The notes: generated by a model from the sequence alone, not told the origin. 31,115 nucleotides of DNA from Candidatus Lloydbacteria bacterium RIFCSPHIGHO2_02_FULL_50_18 (GCA_001821395.1 MHLM01000008.1:1-31115); one strand, 5' to 3'; shown: positions 2,710 through 13,151, numbered from the stretch's first letter. Numbers and translations are program-made.

Positions 2710-3444
2710 TTACATGAAATCTACCAAGCGATCGAGACCAAGCGGACCGATGATGATCCCTGCCCATGAATTCAGTATCCCGAACTGTCCGATAATGAGC
2801 AATATGCCGATACCGATGATGAGTATTGCTCCCACCCGTGTAATAAGTGGGAGATACGTCTCTAGTTTTGCAACATAGGTGAACGCCGAGCCGTAGAGCA
2901 ATGCGACGAAGAGAAACGGGATGGCAAGGCCAAGGGAATAAGTTGCGAGGAGTGCCGCTCCCGAGAATGCCGTCCCCGATGTACTTGCAAGTACGAGGAT
3001 GGTGCCGAGGATGGGCCCCAAACAAGGACTCCAGCCGAGCGCAAAGAGAAAGCCGAGTGAAAAGCCGCCGAACGGACTGCCCGCGGAAACGAAAGCCGGT
3101 GGACGGTACGAGAACCCTTTCATGCGGGGGAAGAGGCCAAGGAGCGAAAGGCCAAAAAGGCAGATGAGCACACCTCCCACCTGAGAAATAAGCAGACGAT
3201 GCATCACGAGGAATTTCCCGATCGAGCCGGATGCAAGACCGAATAGGATGAAGACCACAGAAAAACCAAGTACAAAAAATAGCGCATTCGTGAAGAGACG
3301 CTTTCGTGAAAAAGTCGTTCCGTTTTTGTCCGCACTGCTCCCGCCGATGAAAGCGATGTACGCAGGAATGAGCGGAAGGGTGCACGGCGCAAAAAAGGTG
3401 AGGAGACCGCCGATCAGCGCCGAAATGAAACTGATGTCAGGCAT
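2710..3444 (-). CDS. ccdA: Cytochrome c-type biogenesis / thiol-disulfide transporter, CcdA/DsbD transmembrane family
   Basis: 244-aa polytopic membrane protein. The two conserved Cys sit in TM helices at the typical positions (FAPCTLPLIP, GWSPCLGPILG). Confidence 0.8.
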   Translation of the reverse strand: MPDISFISALIGGLLTFFAPCTLPLIPAYIAFIGGSSADKNGTTFSRKRLFTNALFFVLGFSVVFILFGLASGSIGKFLVMHRLLISQVGGVLICLFGLSLLGLFPRMKGFSYRPPAFVSAGSPFGGFSLGFLFALGWSPCLGPILGTILVLASTSGTAFSGAALLATYSLGLAIPFLFVALLYGSAFTYVAKLETYLPLITRVGAILIIGIGILLIIGQFGILNSWAGIIIGPLGLDRLVDFM

Positions 3445-4548: not shown

Positions 4549-4577
4549 TTGACAAATTTAGTAAATATTATAGAATA
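4549..4577 (+). promoter_or_regulatory. Sigma70-like promoter candidate for the GT2 gene (TTGACA-16-TAGAAT)
   Basis: agTTGACAaatttagtaaatattaTAGAATatcg, about 165 nt upstream of the ATG at 4740. It sits in an AT-rich 440-bp divergent intergenic region. Confidence 0.4.
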
Positions 4578-4739: not shown

Positions 4740-5993
4740 TTGACCATGGATAGCTTTCTTACCCCACCGATCTATTTTTTTCTCTTTCTCACCACCTATT
4801 TCGAGGTGTTTATGCTTGTGACCTATTTCGAGGAGAAGCAGAAATTCAAATTCGTCGCTGCGAAAGAGAGGATGCCGGGAAAGTACCCCAGTGTCACGAT
4901 CATCGTTCCCGCCTGGAATGAAAGCACGACGATATCGGGAACGATCGATTCCCTCCTTGAACTTAAGTACCCGAAGGACAAACTTACTATTTTTATCATT
5001 GACGACGGTTCGACAGACAACACCCTAGAGGTCGCACGGCAATTTGAACAGCACCCGCAGGTGAAGGTCTTCACAAAGGAAAACGGCGGGAAGTTCACCG
5101 CCCTCAATCTCGGCCTTGAACATGCAACCTCGGACCTGATCGGCTGCCTTGATGCGGACTCCTATGTCGCGAACGATGCACTTCTGGAAATCATCCCCTA
5201 CTTTGATGACGCCGAGATCATGGCGGTCACCCCCTCAGTACAGATCCATAACCCGAACAACCTGCTCCGAAGGATACAAGCGGCGGAATACATGATCGGC
5301 GAGTTCTCGCGAAAACTTTTCAGCCGTTTCAACGGCCTCTATGTAACGCCCGGGCCCTTCTCTATATATAGACGGAGCATCTTTGCAAAGATCGGAGGAT
5401 TCATTCATGCCTACAGTACCGAGGATATGGAAATGGCACTGCGCATGCAGTCACACCGCATGAAGATCGAGAACGCCCATGCGGCCCTCGTATACACCGT
5501 TTCTCCCGCTACGCCGCTCGCACTCTATAAGCAGCGCGTGCGTTGGGTCTCGGGATTTCTCAAAAACGCCTTTTTCAAATATCGACACATGTTCCTCAAT
5601 CGCAAATATGGGAACCTCGGGCTGATCACCCTACCGTTCGCGTTCATTTCCATCTTCATCTCCCTCTTCTTTTGCGCGATGTATGTGCGCAGCCTCTTTC
5701 TGCTTGCATACGAGCGTTATCTCCAATATAGTGCGTTGGGATTTCATTTTACCGCACGATGGCCTCAGTTTGACTGGTTCTCACTCAACCTAGAATTTCG
5801 CCGCCTCCTCATCTATTGCCTCCTTTTCACTACGATATTCTTTATCCTGATGGGCGGACGTTTGGTACTGCGACGCTTTGTCGTCACAAGAGATATGATC
5901 TATTTCATGATGTTCTACGGTCTGATAGCGCCATTCTGGCTCATCGGTTCATTAATCAAATTCCTCAGCGCAAAAGACGTGCGCTGGCGGTAA
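4740..5993 (+). CDS. Family-2 glycosyltransferase, processive polysaccharide-synthase type (PgaC/NodC/BcsA-like) with N- and C-terminal TM segments
   Basis: GT-A motifs are present: IIVPAWNE, DDGSTD, DAD and the Q-x-x-RW motif (KQRVRW). There are several C-terminal hydrophobic helices. Confidence 0.8.
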   Translation: MTMDSFLTPPIYFFLFLTTYFEVFMLVTYFEEKQKFKFVAAKERMPGKYPSVTIIVPAWNESTTISGTIDSLLELKYPKDKLTIFIIDDGSTDNTLEVARQFEQHPQVKVFTKENGGKFTALNLGLEHATSDLIGCLDADSYVANDALLEIIPYFDDAEIMAVTPSVQIHNPNNLLRRIQAAEYMIGEFSRKLFSRFNGLYVTPGPFSIYRRSIFAKIGGFIHAYSTEDMEMALRMQSHRMKIENAHAALVYTVSPATPLALYKQRVRWVSGFLKNAFFKYRHMFLNRKYGNLGLITLPFAFISIFISLFFCAMYVRSLFLLAYERYLQYSALGFHFTARWPQFDWFSLNLEFRRLLIYCLLFTTIFFILMGGRLVLRRFVVTRDMIYFMMFYGLIAPFWLIGSLIKFLSAKDVRWR

Positions 5994-6008
5994 AACACCT
6001 TCAACACT

Positions 6009-6701
6009 ATGCAACAAGAACTCAATCCAAAAAAATATATTCTCGTTTTCCTCATCACCCTCGGCGTCTTTGCGGTGATCTTTCTGCTCTCGGACTTTCT
6101 CTATAACCGACGCATCACACAGGTCAAAGGTATCGAAGATACGATCAACAGAAATATCCTTGAATCCGAGATCCAATACGCACTCCTTGCGGATGCCTCT
6201 TGTGACACCGACGAAACAGGAAACCCCGTGCTCGTCGGCGAGATTAACAACCTCACGAAACGCCTTGCCTACATGGAAGAGCAGCGCGGAACGAATGACG
6301 CTGAGGTCATCAGTCTTAAGAAATACTACTCGCTACTTCAAGCGAAAGACTATCTGCTCGTGCGCGAGCGCGCCAAGCAATGCGATGATAAACCCCTTTC
6401 CATCATCTACTTCTACTCGAATGCTGGGAACTGTGACGACTGTAAGAAAATGGGATATGTCCTGACCTCGATGCGCGAAGACTACGACAAGCTCCACGTG
6501 TACGCCTTTGACTACAACCTCGGACTCTCGGTCGTCGAAACGCTCAAGTCGATATACAAACTCGAAGACCGTTTCCCTGTGCTCATCATCAACCGAAAAG
6601 CATACTATGGATTCAAGACCCGAGCGGAGATCGAAGCGATGATACCTGAGCTCGGACGCATGACGGCGACCTCCACAAAGGCCACAACGACTCCAAAGTA
6701 G
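6009..6701 (+). CDS. Membrane-anchored thioredoxin-fold thiol-disulfide oxidoreductase-like protein with CDDC active site
   Basis: N-terminal TM (ILVFLITLGVFAVIFLL). The thioredoxin signature is a beta-strand, then CxxC, then a helix (IIYFYSNAGNCDDCKKMGYVL), with a cis-Pro region further on (RFPVLIINRKAYYGF). Confidence 0.6.
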   Translation: MQQELNPKKYILVFLITLGVFAVIFLLSDFLYNRRITQVKGIEDTINRNILESEIQYALLADASCDTDETGNPVLVGEINNLTKRLAYMEEQRGTNDAEVISLKKYYSLLQAKDYLLVRERAKQCDDKPLSIIYFYSNAGNCDDCKKMGYVLTSMREDYDKLHVYAFDYNLGLSVVETLKSIYKLEDRFPVLIINRKAYYGFKTRAEIEAMIPELGRMTATSTKATTTPK

Positions 6702-6811: not shown

Positions 6812-6840
6812 TTGACAATTTGTACTCTTGGTTCATAATT
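6812..6840 (+). promoter_or_regulatory. Sigma70-like promoter candidate (TTGACA-17-ATAATT)
   Basis: cTTGACAatttgtactcttggttcATAATTatt, followed by a strong RBS (caggagtacgaaATG) for the gene at 6876. Confidence 0.45.
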
Positions 6841-6875: not shown

Positions 6876-7478
6876 ATGACACTCAATACACTCTCCCCCA
6901 ATGCCGTTGCTGCTGAAAAACAGGCAATGAAGAACTGGGTTCGGACCGTTCACAACTATCAACCGGGTGACGCATTTGCGAAAGAAGATTTTCTCGTTGA
7001 TGCATTCCGGGCGATCACAAGCCTTGTGCATTACCACAAAGGAAATCCGCTGGTCCAACAGGCTGTGCGTAACTACCCGGACCTCACCCCGCGCTGCTTC
7101 ACGATCCTGACCATTCTTCACGGCGCATACACTTCGGAGCCAAGCAAACGTTCGATCATGGACGACGTCATCGGGATGCTCGATAGCGACCTCGTCGAAC
7201 AGGAACTCGAAGCATGCACCTATGCAAAGAATGCGCGCGCTGGGGCGTTCTTCCCGGAACTTGTGAAGGTGATGGAGACCATTCGTAACGTATACGAGTC
7301 AAAATACCTCAGTCTCGACGCGCTGCCGCCGACGTCGCACCAAGCATATACACTATATGTGCTCAACTGCGCCGACAAACTCTCTCGGAAGGTGTGCGAA
7401 GAGGAGATGTATGGGCACTTGTCCGTTTACGCTGGCAAGTTTGAGAAGGTCCTCGACCTTGCAAAGCCTACCTCCTGA
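6876..7478 (+). CDS. Hypothetical cytoplasmic protein (200 aa), no recognisable domain
   Basis: ORF with good RBS AGGAGT 6 nt upstream. Composition is protein-like and there is no TM segment. It is convergent with the vWA gene. Confidence 0.55.
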   Translation: MTLNTLSPNAVAAEKQAMKNWVRTVHNYQPGDAFAKEDFLVDAFRAITSLVHYHKGNPLVQQAVRNYPDLTPRCFTILTILHGAYTSEPSKRSIMDDVIGMLDSDLVEQELEACTYAKNARAGAFFPELVKVMETIRNVYESKYLSLDALPPTSHQAYTLYVLNCADKLSRKVCEEEMYGHLSVYAGKFEKVLDLAKPTS

Positions 7479-7596: not shown

Positions 7597-8730
7597 TCAG
7601 CGAGACATATCAACTTCATACAAGAACTGAGTCCCGGCAACAAGTCCTCGGTTGTACGAAGTACTCTGCACAAAGACGTCAAACTCCGCGAGATAGACGG
7701 GCTTCACCTTCGCACTGACGCCGACCCCAAGGCCAATCATCGAGCGTGCGGTTTCGCCGGTATACATATCCCCCGTCGTTTTGTCGCGCAAGACCACTTC
7801 TTTGTAATCCTGGATGAGTTCGGGCTTCGTGAATTGATAGAAGCCGCGCCCCGTCTTGAAGATGAGGTCATTGGCCAGCACGAAGTCCTTGATCGCGATC
7901 TTTCCGCCTGAAGTACTCTTGTCGACCGACAGTATCTGAAAGCGGCCGGGCGGCACAGCATCGAGCGACTTCGGCGCGCGAACAAATCGTTCGGAGATCG
8001 GACGATGTGACAGCTTCGCAAGATTTTCATCGAACGAGCGGGTCATTCGGCCGGACTCAGACACTTCCTGCTCAAAGCGTGACAATTGTTCCGGATCACC
8101 CTGCTTGAGGCAGATCGCCATCAACAGGTCGGTGACCTCCGAAAATTGATCAAGCGTCAAATGGTAACCGCCGGTGCGCTCCGCAAGCTCGCGATAAAAG
8201 GGCGTCGCATAGGGCTTGCTCAGGCACTGGATGGAATAGACCGCGACACCCATCGACTTCAGCTTGTCGGCCTCCTTACGCCAGTCGATACCCTCGCCGT
8301 TGTGGGCAATATTTTGCCGGTCAGTAGGTGAATGCGGAATGTCGTCTGCGATGAGCACGAGCACTTTCACCGCATTGTGACTCCAATCAAGCGCCAGTGC
8401 TTCGCGCAGAACGAGTTCATAGCATTCGGGCAAGTCGCCGCCGCCGGTACTTTGCACGGTGCGCACGAACTGCACGAGATCATGGAGCGACGTCGTAAGG
8501 TCGAGATCGGTCGTCACGTAGGTATGTCCGCGGTCACAATAGTCACCACAGGCGCCGATCGACACGCGCAGGTTCGGCACCTCCTTGAACAAGCGAGTGA
8601 GACTTTCTTCGATTCGACTGCGCACCGCCCTGATGCAGGGAGACATAGACCCCGTTGTGTCAAAACGAAATGCGAGTTCAACGCGTTCTACTGCTGTTTT
8701 CAAATTACCACCTCTTTCATTTGGGAACAA
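7597..8730 (-). CDS. von Willebrand factor A (vWA) domain protein with an uncharacterised ~170-aa C-terminal domain
   Basis: MIDAS-like motif near the N-terminus (AFRFDTTGSMSP) followed by a Rossmann-like alternation of strands and helices (VLVLIADDIP). GC is higher than in surrounding genes. The plus-strand ORFs inside it look like antisense artefacts. Confidence 0.65.
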   Translation of the reverse strand: MFPNERGGNLKTAVERVELAFRFDTTGSMSPCIRAVRSRIEESLTRLFKEVPNLRVSIGACGDYCDRGHTYVTTDLDLTTSLHDLVQFVRTVQSTGGGDLPECYELVLREALALDWSHNAVKVLVLIADDIPHSPTDRQNIAHNGEGIDWRKEADKLKSMGVAVYSIQCLSKPYATPFYRELAERTGGYHLTLDQFSEVTDLLMAICLKQGDPEQLSRFEQEVSESGRMTRSFDENLAKLSHRPISERFVRAPKSLDAVPPGRFQILSVDKSTSGGKIAIKDFVLANDLIFKTGRGFYQFTKPELIQDYKEVVLRDKTTGDMYTGETARSMIGLGVGVSAKVKPVYLAEFDVFVQSTSYNRGLVAGTQFLYEVDMSR

Positions 8731-9706: not shown

Positions 9707-9845
9707 ATATCTCTATGATAGCAGAGAATATATTTGTATTCTATTCGACTCTTTGCTGCTTTCGAGCGAAGCGATGTTTTTATGCTGCGCAATAAAGAAC
9801 TCGCCCATGGAGGCGAGTTGCACGAGTAAAAACACAATTCTTGCT

Positions 9846-10196
9846 TCAATTCCATTCCTCTGTAGACACATCAAAATGAGTTATTGCGGTCTTTTCAGTA
9901 AGCCCACTTTCTACAAAAAATTTTTTGTAGTACTCAAGTCCAAGCGTCATTGCCGAAAATTCCGTTTCAGCATCCACTCGATATATCACCTTGGTAGCCG
10001 AACCGGTAACGGTAATGAGTGATCCATGAAATCTAAAAAATCGAGGGAATACGATGGAATCTGGTTTGACCGAACAATGGCTAAGCGGCTCGATGAAATC
10101 GCTAAACTTATACTGCTCAAGCAATTCTGGTTCACAACCGAGACGACTCTGAATAACAAGAGTGACCTTCCACTCACGGAATTGGGGAGAAGACAT
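9846..10196 (-). CDS. Hypothetical protein (116 aa), immediately upstream of the 2H-phosphoesterase gene
   Basis: Strong SD (AAGGAG 6 nt before the ATG) on the minus strand. Composition is protein-like. The overlapping ORFs in other frames lack a comparable RBS. Confidence 0.5.
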   Translation of the reverse strand: MSSPQFREWKVTLVIQSRLGCEPELLEQYKFSDFIEPLSHCSVKPDSIVFPRFFRFHGSLITVTGSATKVIYRVDAETEFSAMTLGLEYYKKFFVESGLTEKTAITHFDVSTEEWN

Positions 10197-10487
10197 GATG
10201 AGCTCCTTAAGTAGATGTTAAAGAAAAAGGCGTGAACACAAAGGTCCTCTTTCATATTGGCATTAATCTCATACCTGTCAAGCAACGAATCGTTCACAGG
10301 GTATCTTCGAGATTGCTGTGTATGCCACACCCCTTCATCTTAAACCCCGGGGTGATGCAGAGGTATTGAAACAATGCAATACAAAAACCCGATGCATTGC
10401 ATCAGACTTTAAATTATTTGTGAGCCTCGAGGCAGCGGATTGGAACCTGTTGATACGGGAGCTTAAAGATTGGGCGGGGTTGGGGGG

Positions 10488-10515
10488 TTGACAAAACAGT
10501 ATGCCAGTGTATGAT
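10488..10515 (+). promoter_or_regulatory. Sigma70-like promoter (TTGACA-16-TATGAT), copy 1 of a repeated GGTTGACAAAACAG promoter module
   Basis: ggggGGTTGACAaaacagtatgccagtgTATGATact. The same -35 module recurs at 11077. Confidence 0.5.
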
Positions 10516-10566
10516 ACTATACAGTTTGCAGAGTTTCCAATCAGTTCCCATTAACAGGAGATGTAA

Positions 10567-10920
10567 ATGCTTAGTCGCTATCTCGCCCTCACCATCGCCG
10601 TTGGAGCGTCCATCCTCACCACCTCGGTCAGCGCAGGAAGTTCGACAAATAACGATGCTGGGGATCGCAGTTCGCCATATTCCGCAGACCTCATCTTCAA
10701 GATCAATGATGCGCATGTCACGTATCGCACCGACGGACACATGCTTGTGTGCATTAATAAGAAGAAAAAAGGGACGGAGTCGTGCGATGACTCGAGTGGC
10801 AAATTGACACTGGAAGAATTCTGGAAATTGTATTTTCCAGATGCTCCTAGTACGTTGCGCGTAGTCGCAATGGATTACAGGACGTACTACTCGACCTACA
10901 TCTTCTGGCTCAAGCGATAG
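10567..10920 (+). CDS. Small secreted protein (117 aa) with signal peptide
   Basis: RBS aacAGGAGatgtaaATG. Signal-like N-terminus MLSRYLALTIAVGASILTTSVSAGS. Two Cys. Confidence 0.6.
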   Translation: MLSRYLALTIAVGASILTTSVSAGSSTNNDAGDRSSPYSADLIFKINDAHVTYRTDGHMLVCINKKKKGTESCDDSSGKLTLEEFWKLYFPDAPSTLRVVAMDYRTYYSTYIFWLKR

Positions 10921-10942
10921 CCACACATTCACCCATCGAACG

Positions 10943-10977
10943 AACCAGCCTCTAAAACGGCTGGTTCATTTTTATTT
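10943..10977 (+). terminator. Rho-independent terminator followed by the ATTTGTGAC boundary motif
   Basis: gaaccagcc-tctaaaac-ggctggttc hairpin followed by atttttatttgtgaccc. Confidence 0.6.
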
Positions 10978-11078
10978 GTGACCCTAACGGGAAGAATTTG
11001 GAATCAGGTGTATGGGGAGATGATTTTGGTTGAGAGGTGGGATGTTACACTTACTTGTTGAACCCAGAATTGGGGAGG

Positions 11079-11109
11079 TTGACAAAACAGTTCACTTTTT
11101 ATTAAATAA
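11079..11109 (+). promoter_or_regulatory. Sigma70-like promoter, copy 2 of the GGTTGACAAAACAG module
   Basis: gggGAGGTTGACAaaacagttcactttttatTAAATAat. The -10 assignment is ambiguous (TATTAA or TAAATA). Confidence 0.4.
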
Positions 11110-11140
11110 TCTCAGATTGCGATTCATGCGGGAGATAGGA

Positions 11141-11296
11141 ATGAAGACGTACATTATCATCGGTGCAGTGTTCGGCCTTGTTGGAGTGACCGCACGCTTG
11201 CTAGGTGTCCATTTGAATTCTTGGATGTGGGGGGTGGGGGTAGGGTTTGCGGCAGCCCTGATTGTTGGTTACATCAAAAACAGAAAAAAGGGATAG
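11141..11296 (+). CDS. 51-aa hydrophobic two-helix peptide with basic C-terminus (small membrane protein; type I toxin-like architecture)
   Basis: Internal ATG of the 88-aa track ORF with RBS gGGAGataggaATG. Sequence is MKTYIIIGAVFGLVGVTARLLGVHLNSWMWGVGVGFAAALIVGYIKNRKKG. The upstream part of the track ORF is promoter sequence. Confidence 0.5.
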   Translation: MKTYIIIGAVFGLVGVTARLLGVHLNSWMWGVGVGFAAALIVGYIKNRKKG

Positions 11297-12346
11297 GTGC
11301 ACAATCGTCAGTGATGGCGATTTTTTATTTGTGACTCTACAGAGAATTTCGCTCCCTACTGGAGCAGTGCGCCTTTGCGATTTACTCTGAATAAGAATTC
11401 TTCGTAAATAACACAAAGCCCTTCGATTCTCTGGCGAAAAGCAAGCAGTTGCTTTTCTTAAGGTCACAGACAAAAATGGCCACGCTTTCGCATGACTCAT
11501 TTTTGTTGCTGTGACCTTACAGAGAATCGGGGTCAACTCACATCAATATTTTATTCGTGCGGACACTCCAAAATATTGTGTGGTTCCTCCCCGGACTCGG
11601 CAACGCCCATCGACAGGCTCAGGGCGGCTTCGCGCCTCCGTCTTTCGATCATCTGCAAGGGCCCGGCAAATACTAAAAGCCCGATGCATTGCATCGGACT
11701 TAAAGTATTTGTGACCTTACAGAGAATCGAACTCTGATTTAAGCCTTGAGAAGGCTTCGTCCTAACCGTTAGACGATAAGGCCAATACGTAGTTGTGATA
11801 ATAACATTGAGTTCGATTCTATGGAACTCTGATTTCCGCCCTACTGGCGCAGTACACCTTTTCGATTTTTAAGAAAAAACCTGAAAAGGTCTTGTGAAGT
11901 GGGTCCCATCCCACTTCTCACCTTTCGAAGGCTTCGTCTCCCTAAAGGGACTTCCATTTTCTAAAACGGAATACCGTTAAGAAAATTTGATCGCTAACCG
12001 TTAGACGATAAGGCCAATACGTAGTTGTGATAATAACATTGAGTTCGATTCTATGGAACTCTGATTTCCTCCCTACAAACGGCAGCGAGGAGAAAAGGAA
12101 GCTCGCTTACTTTTTATCCGAGTGAACCGTTCGTATGTTTCATACAGGAGCTGTTCCCGATTGATTATCCGAGACCGTTCTCCCTGCCTGCGCAGGCAGG
12201 CGATAAGGCCAATGGACAGACAGCACTTTTAATCGAACTTCAAAAGAATAGCGAATTTGAGCCTATTTGTCTACCTCAAGGTTGACAATATTGAATATTC
12301 GTGTAGAATGGGAAATGAAGCAAGTCTTCGTATAAGGAGTTAGTTA
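11297..12346. repeat. ~1 kb ORF-free mosaic repeat region (modular direct and inverted repeats, many hairpins); candidate structured-RNA array or decayed cassette/MITE cluster
   Basis: There are three copies of ATTTGTGAC(C/T)(C/T)TACAGAGAAT at 11328, 11507 and 11709. A 76-bp perfect direct repeat occurs at 11762-11837 and 11994-12069. An inverted repeat pairs 11458-11478 with 11498-11519. There is a perfect 18-bp palindrome cctgcctgcgcaggcagg at about 12183-12200. A third partial copy gcgataaggccaat sits at 12199. Hairpin CTCC-CTACT-GGAG co-varies with CGCC-CTACT-GGCG. Confidence 0.7.
12279..12306 (+). promoter_or_regulatory. Strong sigma70-like promoter (TTGACA-16-TAGAAT)
   Basis: aagGTTGACAatattgaatattcgtgTAGAATggg, 40 nt upstream of the ATG at 12347. 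Confidence 0.55.
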
Positions 12347-12676
12347 ATGAAAAAAACACATCAACCCCGTTGGGAAGATGAATTTCGTGCACTCGTGCAC
12401 GAAGAGATAAAGAGAGAGATTACCGGTCAGAAAAAGCTGAATTCAGCTATCATCTGGTCAAGGAACCCTCTTTCTTTTGTTGATTCGGAGTCGAATAAAA
12501 AACTTCATGATTGCTGGAAATTCTTTCCTGATTGGCTGAAGAGGTATGACAGTACTTCGAGGAAGGGGTCGCTCGGTAGGTCGTGGGGGGCTCTTGTTGG
12601 CAGTACAAAGAAAAAAATTGCACTGGCATTCAAGAATCACTCTTCTCGACAACTGGGCGCAACGCCAAGAAAATAA
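12347..12676 (+). CDS. Hypothetical basic cytoplasmic protein (109 aa)
   Basis: Excellent RBS (tAAGGAGttagttaATG). No TM segment and no recognisable domain. Confidence 0.55.
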   Translation: MKKTHQPRWEDEFRALVHEEIKREITGQKKLNSAIIWSRNPLSFVDSESNKKLHDCWKFFPDWLKRYDSTSRKGSLGRSWGALVGSTKKKIALAFKNHSSRQLGATPRK

Positions 12677-12710
12677 ATTCGTTCTTTTCACAACATACAT
12701 AGGAGCCATA

Positions 12711-13151
12711 TTGAAATCAGCTGATAGTAAGACGCAGGCACACCCACGCAAGAAAGATCGCGAGACCTGTCTTCCGGAAAACTTTCCGCAGATCACCGCT
12801 CACGACGTGATCGACCGCACAAAGGTCTTCATTCTCGTCGTGCGCGGATTCGTCGGCGCACAGATCTTGATCGGGCCGTTTCAGGTCATCGGATCGCCAA
12901 AGCTGATCGCACACATGCCCCCATTTTGCGGGCACTACCGATTACGCGTGAGGATGATTGCTACCGATACGGAACAGTGCATCGTCGTGCCGACGGACGG
13001 ATTCGCGCAGATCTATGGAATGCAATACAGCCTGCACGAGTATCTCCCTCAAGCGAAAAAATATTTCGAACAATTCGACGCGAACGCGATCGCACTCGCG
13101 TCGATATTTCATTCTCAAGAGGCACGGAATAAGAACAAATATCTCAAATAA
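12711..13151 (+). CDS. Hypothetical protein (~146 aa) probably starting at TTG; second gene of a two-gene operon
   Basis: AGGAG sits 5 nt upstream of an in-frame TTG at 12711, directly after the stop of the preceding gene. The alternative ATG at 12546 would overlap that gene by 130 nt and adds an R/G-rich, non-protein-like N-terminus. Confidence 0.45.
   Translation: MKSADSKTQAHPRKKDRETCLPENFPQITAHDVIDRTKVFILVVRGFVGAQILIGPFQVIGSPKLIAHMPPFCGHYRLRVRMIATDTEQCIVVPTDGFAQIYGMQYSLHEYLPQAKKYFEQFDANAIALASIFHSQEARNKNKYLK

Follow-up and report, generated by a model that had tools for sequence, protein, structure and literature searches.

A thioredoxin-fold protein encoded beside a processive family 2 glycosyltransferase in Paceibacterota and DPANN genomes is a candidate outer-face partner of the synthase

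A 230-aa membrane-anchored thioredoxin (Trx)-fold protein, here called TRXL, is encoded on a 31,115-nt stretch of DNA from Candidatus Lloydbacteria bacterium RIFCSPHIGHO2_02_FULL_50_18 (GCA_001821395.1, MHLM01000008.1:1-31115; the whole stretch is referred to below as the window). The gene lies directly downstream of that of a processive membrane glycosyltransferase of family 2 (GT2) and close to a divergently transcribed gene for a CcdA/DsbD-type electron transporter. Does TRXL belong to an extracytoplasmic thiol-reducing pathway fed by CcdA, as an initial annotation of the window had proposed, or does it belong to the synthase? We propose that TRXL is a dedicated partner subunit of the adjacent GT2 synthase at the outer face of the membrane and not a general CcdA-fed reductase, with a probability of roughly 0.55. 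The initial annotation had called the open reading frame (ORF) of TRXL with an N-terminal transmembrane (TM) anchor, and both are present in the window. The features of the gene pair are as follows:

4549..4576, + strand: promoter-like site TTGACA-16-TAGAAT upstream of the GT2-TRXL pair (11/12; consensus match only)
4740..5993, + strand: processive membrane GT2 synthase (PgaC/IcaA/BcsA-like) with QRVRW, DAD and TED motifs and 1+3 hydrophobic segments
6009..6701, + strand: TRXL, 230-aa membrane-anchored thioredoxin-fold protein
6036..6104, + strand: signal-anchor TM helix by hydropathy (aa 10-32), preceded by K8 and K9
6105..6383, + strand: helical stalk in the predicted structure (aa 33-125; helices to residue 61, 73-93 and 98-125)
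6201-6203 and 6381-6383, + strand: C65 and C125, the invariant Cys pair of the stalk
6390..6656, + strand: thioredoxin/glutaredoxin-type domain (aa 128-216, about 90 residues), which contains D168
6432-6443, + strand: CxxC (CDDC) codons
6576-6578, + strand: P190, the Pro of RFP
6657..6701, + strand: Ser/Thr/Ala-rich C-terminal tail and stop codon (low confidence, pLDDT about 41)

All 35 contexts checked have a GT2 homologue next to the TRXL gene, whichever of the two genes comes first and with unrelated genes around them. The pair was found in 26/26 genome loci (with the order inverted in Nomurabacteria), in 3/3 long Paceibacterota contigs, in 4/4 distant or variant TRXL members, and in 2/2 cases when the test was reversed and started from GT2 homologues at 51% identity. 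In the most divergent of the 26 loci (L025) the order is TRXL then GT2, between rpsB-tsf and pheST, and the three long contigs are arranged likewise. The two genes either overlap or are 2-15 nt apart. In the window the GT2 stop and the start of TRXL are separated by 15 nt, and both genes share a reading frame. No promoter-like or convincing terminator-like site was found between the two genes, and the next promoter-like site on the + strand is at 6812-6839. The GT2 ORF matches Pfam Glycos_transf_2 (E = 3.5e-35); its closest model is TIGR03937 PgaC_IcaA at E = 2.5e-47, a match below the equivalog cut-off, and BcsA aligns to residues 41-329, i.e. the catalytic core and first TM region, with an E-value of about 1e-14. 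A natural single-chain GT2-TRXL fusion of 717 aa (P0435) was found as a single-member cluster on one 13-kb contig. The 35/35 adjacency and this fusion strongly support the role in envelope or polysaccharide biogenesis that had initially been suggested from the proximity of the two genes.

Two TRXL homologues, P0369 and P0398, carry a C-terminal PIG-L N-acetylglucosamine (GlcNAc) de-N-acetylase domain (Pfam E = 7e-11 and 2.5e-12), and P0369 (L033 6001-7428) begins 2 nt downstream of a GT2. The PIG-L domain is attached in both without an extra TM segment, so that under the topology predicted below the PIG-L enzyme would be extracellular, an unusual place for its family. Other long GT2 homologues (P0266, P0323 and others) were considered as fusions and rejected, as they merely have over-called N-termini. 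In the window (4740-6701, + strand) GT2 and TRXL are separated by just a stop codon and five codons; the 717-aa protein P0435 may be a read-through or a fused version of such a pair.

An exhaustive profile search recovered 1,068 TRXL clusters at 50% identity. GT2-TRXL is a near-universal two-gene module in Paceibacterota (>1,000 such clusters), where it is placed among housekeeping genes, and it also occurs in DPANN archaea. Candidatus Lloydbacteria itself belongs to the Parcubacteria/Paceibacterota, within the Candidate Phyla Radiation (CPR). Two archaeal contexts hold the pair (L034 6001-6630 and L035 5477-6169); one of these contigs, from a metagenome-assembled genome (MAG) named Pacearchaeota, encodes eRF1 with an intein, RpoL and ScpB, and the other encodes TruD and aEF-1beta. 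This suggests either a distribution shared between the CPR and DPANN or transfer between the two groups. The near-universal occurrence in Paceibacterota, the housekeeping setting and the presence in DPANN together mark the module out as a strong candidate for core machinery that makes an envelope or attachment polysaccharide.

In the predicted structure the TRXL domain has a core of beta-alpha-beta-alpha-beta-beta-alpha topology, which is that of the thioredoxin fold. C142 and C145 stand just before helix 143-158 in the model, i.e. the CxxC is at the N-terminus of helix 1, and P190 directly precedes strand 191-194 (strand 3), the position of the (cis-)Pro loop, the cis state itself being a prediction. 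The model confirms the thioredoxin geometry and the RFP loop proposed in the initial annotation. There was no significant sequence match for TRXL among the curated thioredoxin-family models of Pfam and NCBIfam: Pfam returned none at E <= 0.1, and the sole NCBIfam match is the PDO thioredoxin model at E = 0.045. A Methanosarcina glutaredoxin (3nzn) aligns with CxxC over CxxC and FP over FP at E = 0.057, an hhalign comparison with E. coli TrxA has E = 0.068, and relatives of TRXL have sub-threshold Pfam matches to Thioredoxin and Thioredoxin_2. A search of the PDB sequences with the TRXL family profile found no significant relative; neither Pfam nor NCBIfam has a model of the family, and no structure of a relative has been solved. 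Judged from the model, the TRXL domain is a thioredoxin fold with a CxxC and a Pro loop. The closest known kind is the minimal four-strand type of the thioredoxin/glutaredoxin superfamily (the AhpF N-terminal domain, archaeal PDO and glutaredoxin-like proteins), to which TRXL adds an N-terminal signal anchor, a helical stalk of about 90 aa and an extra invariant Cys pair; its C-x-[D/E]-C also differs from the CGPC, CPYC or CPHC of the minimal proteins. A Sco-like metal site with H163 was ruled out, since the other clade has Arg at this position and H163 lies at the far end of strand 2.

Is the putative active site conserved? A close set was assembled from the 120 nearest TRXL homologues (at least 59% identity) and 120 relatives of a Nomurabacteria member that is 45% identical to the query TRXL, and a divergent set from the best 150 of the 1,068 clusters. 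C65, C125, C142, C145 and P190 are invariant in the 120 nearest homologues, and these five residues and D168 are each present in 240/240 of the two close clades. Chance does not explain the CxxC and P190, given that C142, C145 and P190 do not vary among 240 homologues in two clades of only 45% identity. Neither outcome that the initial annotation had named as refuting it, a missing thioredoxin fold or cysteines not conserved among homologues, was observed. The initial annotation attached weight to the Asp-Asp between the two cysteines, and one half of this holds: position 144 is acidic in 236/240 of the close set. Position 143, however, is free (P/D/A/T/E/V), and CDDC itself is found in 38 of the 120 nearest homologues, where the pattern is C-x-[D/E]-C. 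In the divergent set the CxxC is intact in 134/145 representatives, and only 82 of these 134 have an acidic residue before the second Cys. CDDC is thus, on these alignments, a local variant; Asp-Asp is not the conserved feature and the second acidic residue is semi-conserved. P190 is kept in 135/137 divergent representatives. C65 (135/139) and C125 (144/147) are kept more strictly than the CxxC, one or both cysteines of which are lost in 11/145 divergent members (about 8%). Stalk helices 1 and 3 both end at the membrane-distal tip in the model, so C65 and C125 are expected to be neighbours, and a disulfide stapling the stalk would be the simplest reading of this pair.

The same numbers bear on the alternative that survives best, namely that TRXL is a non-redox scaffold co-subunit whose Trx domain serves only to bind or steer the growing glycan or a partner protein, the CxxC being a structural disulfide. 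BcsB guides cellulose through alpha/beta domains. The stricter conservation of C65 and C125 fits such a scaffold, as do the 11 members that lost CxxC cysteine(s) and still keep P190, C65 and C125, with a GT2 alongside in the two that were checked. A CxxC, a Pro loop and D168 that are invariant in 240 proteins, and a CxxC retained in 92% of the divergent clusters, are nevertheless typical of catalytic sites, and the semi-conserved acid inside the CxxC suggests tuned thiol chemistry. We consider the non-redox scaffold rather unlikely.

The second alternative is close to the initial proposal and involves the genes on the other strand:

2710..3444, - strand: CcdA/DsbD-type transmembrane electron transporter (Pfam DsbD_TM E = 2.2e-16)
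4386-4359, - strand: perfect promoter-like site of the CcdA operon
1703-2707, - strand: exported TSP3-repeat protein of 334 aa, with a signal peptide and a C-terminal TM; 4-nt overlap between its start and the stop of CcdA
1170-1676, - strand: membrane-anchored protein of 168 aa, the last gene of the SLT-CcdA operon, with no Pfam family

The CcdA gene and its operon with two exported proteins are as initially described. The operon reads SLT-CcdA-TSP3 protein-168 aa protein and is divergent from the GT2-TRXL pair, and the catalytic cysteines C21 and C141 of CcdA are conserved. The repeats of the 334-aa protein are of the bacterial thrombospondin type-3, calcium-binding kind. In the 168-aa protein C86 and C116 are invariant in 12/12 homologues; it is possibly a client of the CcdA pathway or a disulfide-bonded surface protein. 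Of about 23 Lloydbacteria-like loci that could be assessed, 18 have CcdA near the pair, as does L038. In this lineage CcdA may well reduce TRXL, as the lineage-restricted synteny suggests. The thiol-reducing pathway from CcdA to TRXL is not supported in the form in which it was first put forward, as the argument for it is synteny in one lineage, and it is further weakened by the second protein with two invariant Cys in CcdA's own operon.

From this setting TRXL could be read as a general reductase outside the cytoplasm, dependent on CcdA and of the same kind as TlpA, ResA or Etrx, that holds envelope proteins or a methionine sulfoxide reductase (Msr) in the reduced state, with its adjacency to GT2 incidental. 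It has the membrane anchor, Trx fold and CxxC expected of such a protein, CcdA is transcribed divergently next door in the loci just counted, and a few homologues are labelled automatically as 'TlpA family protein disulfide reductase' or 'thiol-disulfide isomerase'. CcdA-Etrx-MsrAB pathways are known in cytochrome-free Gram-positives (PMC3914529, PMC7034828). Like the CcdA-dependent reductases (ResA, StoA, TlpA, CcmG and pneumococcal Etrx1/2), TRXL is a membrane-tethered extracytoplasmic Trx-fold protein, by prediction, with CcdA next door in the Lloydbacteria-like lineage. The active site of ResA is CEPC with Glu80, a low-potential site tuned by an acidic residue, and the acid of TRXL recalls it. 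TRXL nonetheless lacks the Redoxin, AhpC-TSA or Thioredoxin_8 signature (no Pfam match) and also the N-terminal beta-hairpin and central alpha/beta insert of the TlpA/ResA/CcmG type (about 140 aa), and structurally it is no closer to that type than to generic Trx. Neither its sequence nor its domain architecture makes TRXL a protein of the TlpA/ResA/CcmG type, with which a structural comparison had been suggested at the outset. There are no cytochrome c, Msr or sporulation clients in view: the single CxxCH of the 31-kb window sits in an antisense, probably non-coding ORF, and no Msr gene was seen in the window. The conserved partner of TRXL is GT2, not CcdA. A general reductase is in our judgement unlikely.

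The membrane topology decides whether the Trx domain could act at the outer face. TRXL has one hydrophobic segment, aa 10-32. Among 124 divergent members the N-terminal flank of this segment has on average 3.2 K/R and 0.8 D/E and the C-terminal flank 2.3 K/R and 2.25 D/E; the mean net charge is about +3.5 on the N-flank versus about 0 on the C-flank, and the N-flank exceeds the C-flank in 116/124. The distant members begin with very basic N-tails. This type-II signal-anchor pattern supports the prediction that the Trx domain is extracytoplasmic, as the initial annotation had it. The C-tail of GT2 and the loop before its last hydrophobic segment are basic too, and the linker of the fusion P0435 has six lysines, in keeping with a GT2 C-terminus and a TRXL N-terminus that meet in the cytoplasm.

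The opposite orientation (N-out/C-in) would bring the Trx domain into the cytoplasm, where it might regulate the GT2 catalytic domain, e.g. via Cys136, or act with a PIG-L-type deacetylase on a GlcNAc-lipid or GlcNAc-primer. GT2 Cys136 (5145-5147, in G-C-L-D-A-D) is the only invariant cysteine of the synthase (26/26) and lies directly before DAD on the cytoplasmic side. The 1+3 hydrophobic segments of GT2, if all of them span the membrane, would give an outside C-terminus, the known PIG-L/LmbE enzymes are cytoplasmic, and the PIG-L domain is fused straight after the Trx domain. The flanks of the window TRXL, with near-equal K/R counts, also permit this orientation. Against it stand the strongly N-in charge of the family as a whole, together with the very basic N-tails of its distant members, and the basic GT2 tail, preceding loop and Lys-rich fusion linker, which fit a cytoplasmic junction; four invariant cysteines in two pairs are also better suited to an oxidising compartment. 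We regard a cytoplasmic Trx domain as quite improbable. Least probable of all is a DsbA/BdbD-like oxidase that would put disulfides into exported proteins: TRXL shares the membrane-anchored extracytoplasmic Trx fold, and its own apparent structural disulfide (C65/C125) implies oxidative folding outside the cell, but the model has no DsbA-type helical insertion, no neighbourhood examined has a DsbB or VKOR gene, the acid before the second Cys should, from CxxC chemistry, disfavour the thiolate and hence an oxidising potential, and the neighbouring membrane redox protein, CcdA, is a reductive transporter.

How might a partner subunit of this kind work? GT2 and TRXL would be co-transcribed. The short basic N-terminus of TRXL would lie in the cytoplasm and its single helix would cross the membrane, presumably packed on the TM region of the synthase. 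The three-helix stalk, about 4 nm long and probably stapled by C65-C125, would lift the Trx domain above the outer face at the point of polymer exit, where most lineages keep a putative thiol-disulfide site of the C-x-x-C/cis-Pro type. By analogy with CxxC chemistry, the acid before the second Cys would raise the thiol pKa and lower the potential, giving a reductant-like or tightly controlled site. Such a site could couple secretion or processing of the polymer to the extracellular redox state, or handle a thiol client at the exit. In the Lloydbacteria lineage the neighbouring CcdA would be the obvious candidate for keeping TRXL reduced. The polymer may contain GlcNAc and be modified at the same site; a GlcNAc-containing, locally modified polymer is suggested by the occasional TRXL-PIG-L deacetylase fusions. 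IcaB and PgaB modify the polymer in poly-N-acetylglucosamine (PNAG) systems. That CPR bacteria and DPANN archaea share an unrecognised two-component synthase, in which a redox Trx subunit on a stapled stalk gates or processes a GlcNAc polymer by the extracellular redox state, is a tentative extension of the partner role that we put forward with considerable reserve.

Several points weigh against an outer-face redox partner of GT2. The GT2-TRXL complex and the redox activity are both predictions, and confidence in the stalk model is modest (pLDDT 51-80). In the window TRXL the K/R counts of the two TM flanks are near equal. To our knowledge, the characterised PIG-L relatives (MshB, BshB and PIG-L) are all cytoplasmic-side enzymes, which is awkward for an outside location. 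The two CxxC-less members that still adjoin a GT2 indicate that the partnership can do without the redox site. CcdA is near the pair in 0/10 other contexts (L019, L020, L025 and seven more). The synthase was rejected as the thiol client, as it has no conserved extracytoplasmic cysteine, so it is not an obvious one.

Among known systems, the co-subunits of polysaccharide synthases (IcaD of IcaA, PgaD of PgaC and BcsB of BcsA) resemble TRXL in being small membrane proteins whose genes adjoin that of a processive GT2 and are transcribed together with it, in a pairing that is kept over a wide phylogenetic distance and occasionally becomes a fusion. The likeness does not extend to homology: TRXL has no Pfam or NCBIfam match to IcaD, PgaD or BcsB, and no sequence or fold relationship with them. 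IcaD and PgaD span the membrane twice and have no ectodomain, and BcsB is large and C-terminally anchored, with carbohydrate-binding and flavodoxin-like domains; TRXL, unlike these, is anchored by one N-terminal TM and bears an ectodomain of redox type. The nearest functional precedent, by analogy, is the one well-known case of a Trx-fold accessory subunit to a membrane glycosyltransferase: Ost3/Ost6 and MagT1/TUSC3 are CxxC Trx-fold accessory subunits of the eukaryotic oligosaccharyltransferase, at the non-cytoplasmic face (PMC4137057, PMC8191290). In Ost3/Ost6/MagT1 a luminal Trx domain is followed by four C-terminal TMs and the partner is STT3 (protein N-glycosylation), whereas TRXL has one N-terminal TM and a GT2 as its partner; no OST3_OST6 Pfam match was found in TRXL.

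The fold of TRXL is ordinary; what was unexpected is that in CPR and DPANN alike it is obligately paired with a polysaccharide synthase, and a literature search for a CPR/DPANN Trx-GT2 system found no description. Members of both groups spend their lives attached to other cells, and the construction of their surfaces is almost unstudied. If the proposal is correct, a Trx-fold co-subunit would be a new solution to the need of synthase-dependent polysaccharide systems for a second subunit and would define a new class of synthase co-subunit, in a module possibly exchanged between two groups of ultra-small symbionts. Such a co-subunit would also tie polymer production to extracellular redox conditions in a concrete way that can be tested. 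Automatic labels in the family are sporadic ('TlpA family', 'thiol-disulfide isomerase' and 'glutaredoxin-related'). Defining the TRXL family would improve the annotation of thousands of MAGs, some of them under the probably misleading 'TlpA family' label.

Some further observations concern the pair and its surroundings. The C-terminal tail of TRXL (6657-6698, + strand) reads ATSTKATTTPK; its Ser/Thr/Ala composition is kept in the Lloydbacteria and Nomurabacteria clades and the tail is missing from a distant 215-aa TRXL subfamily. The tail may act as a linker or be glycosylated. In the Nomurabacteria-type arrangement, rpsB-tsf-X-TRXL-GT2-pheST, X is a conserved membrane protein of 129-131 aa directly upstream of TRXL (7415-7810 in L025; about 5200-5600 in L030-L032), which might be a third component of the module. 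Downstream of the pair in the window, an unannotated 200-aa protein (6876-7478, + strand) is followed by a VWA-domain protein (7597-8730, - strand; 377 aa by the listed ORF and 349 aa in the source records), and neither is kept beside the module in other loci. Between LigT and MurF, at 9800-13150, there are short, unannotated and partly overlapping ORFs of 56-201 aa; gene calls there vary between otherwise identical contigs, and the region may be variable or poorly coding.
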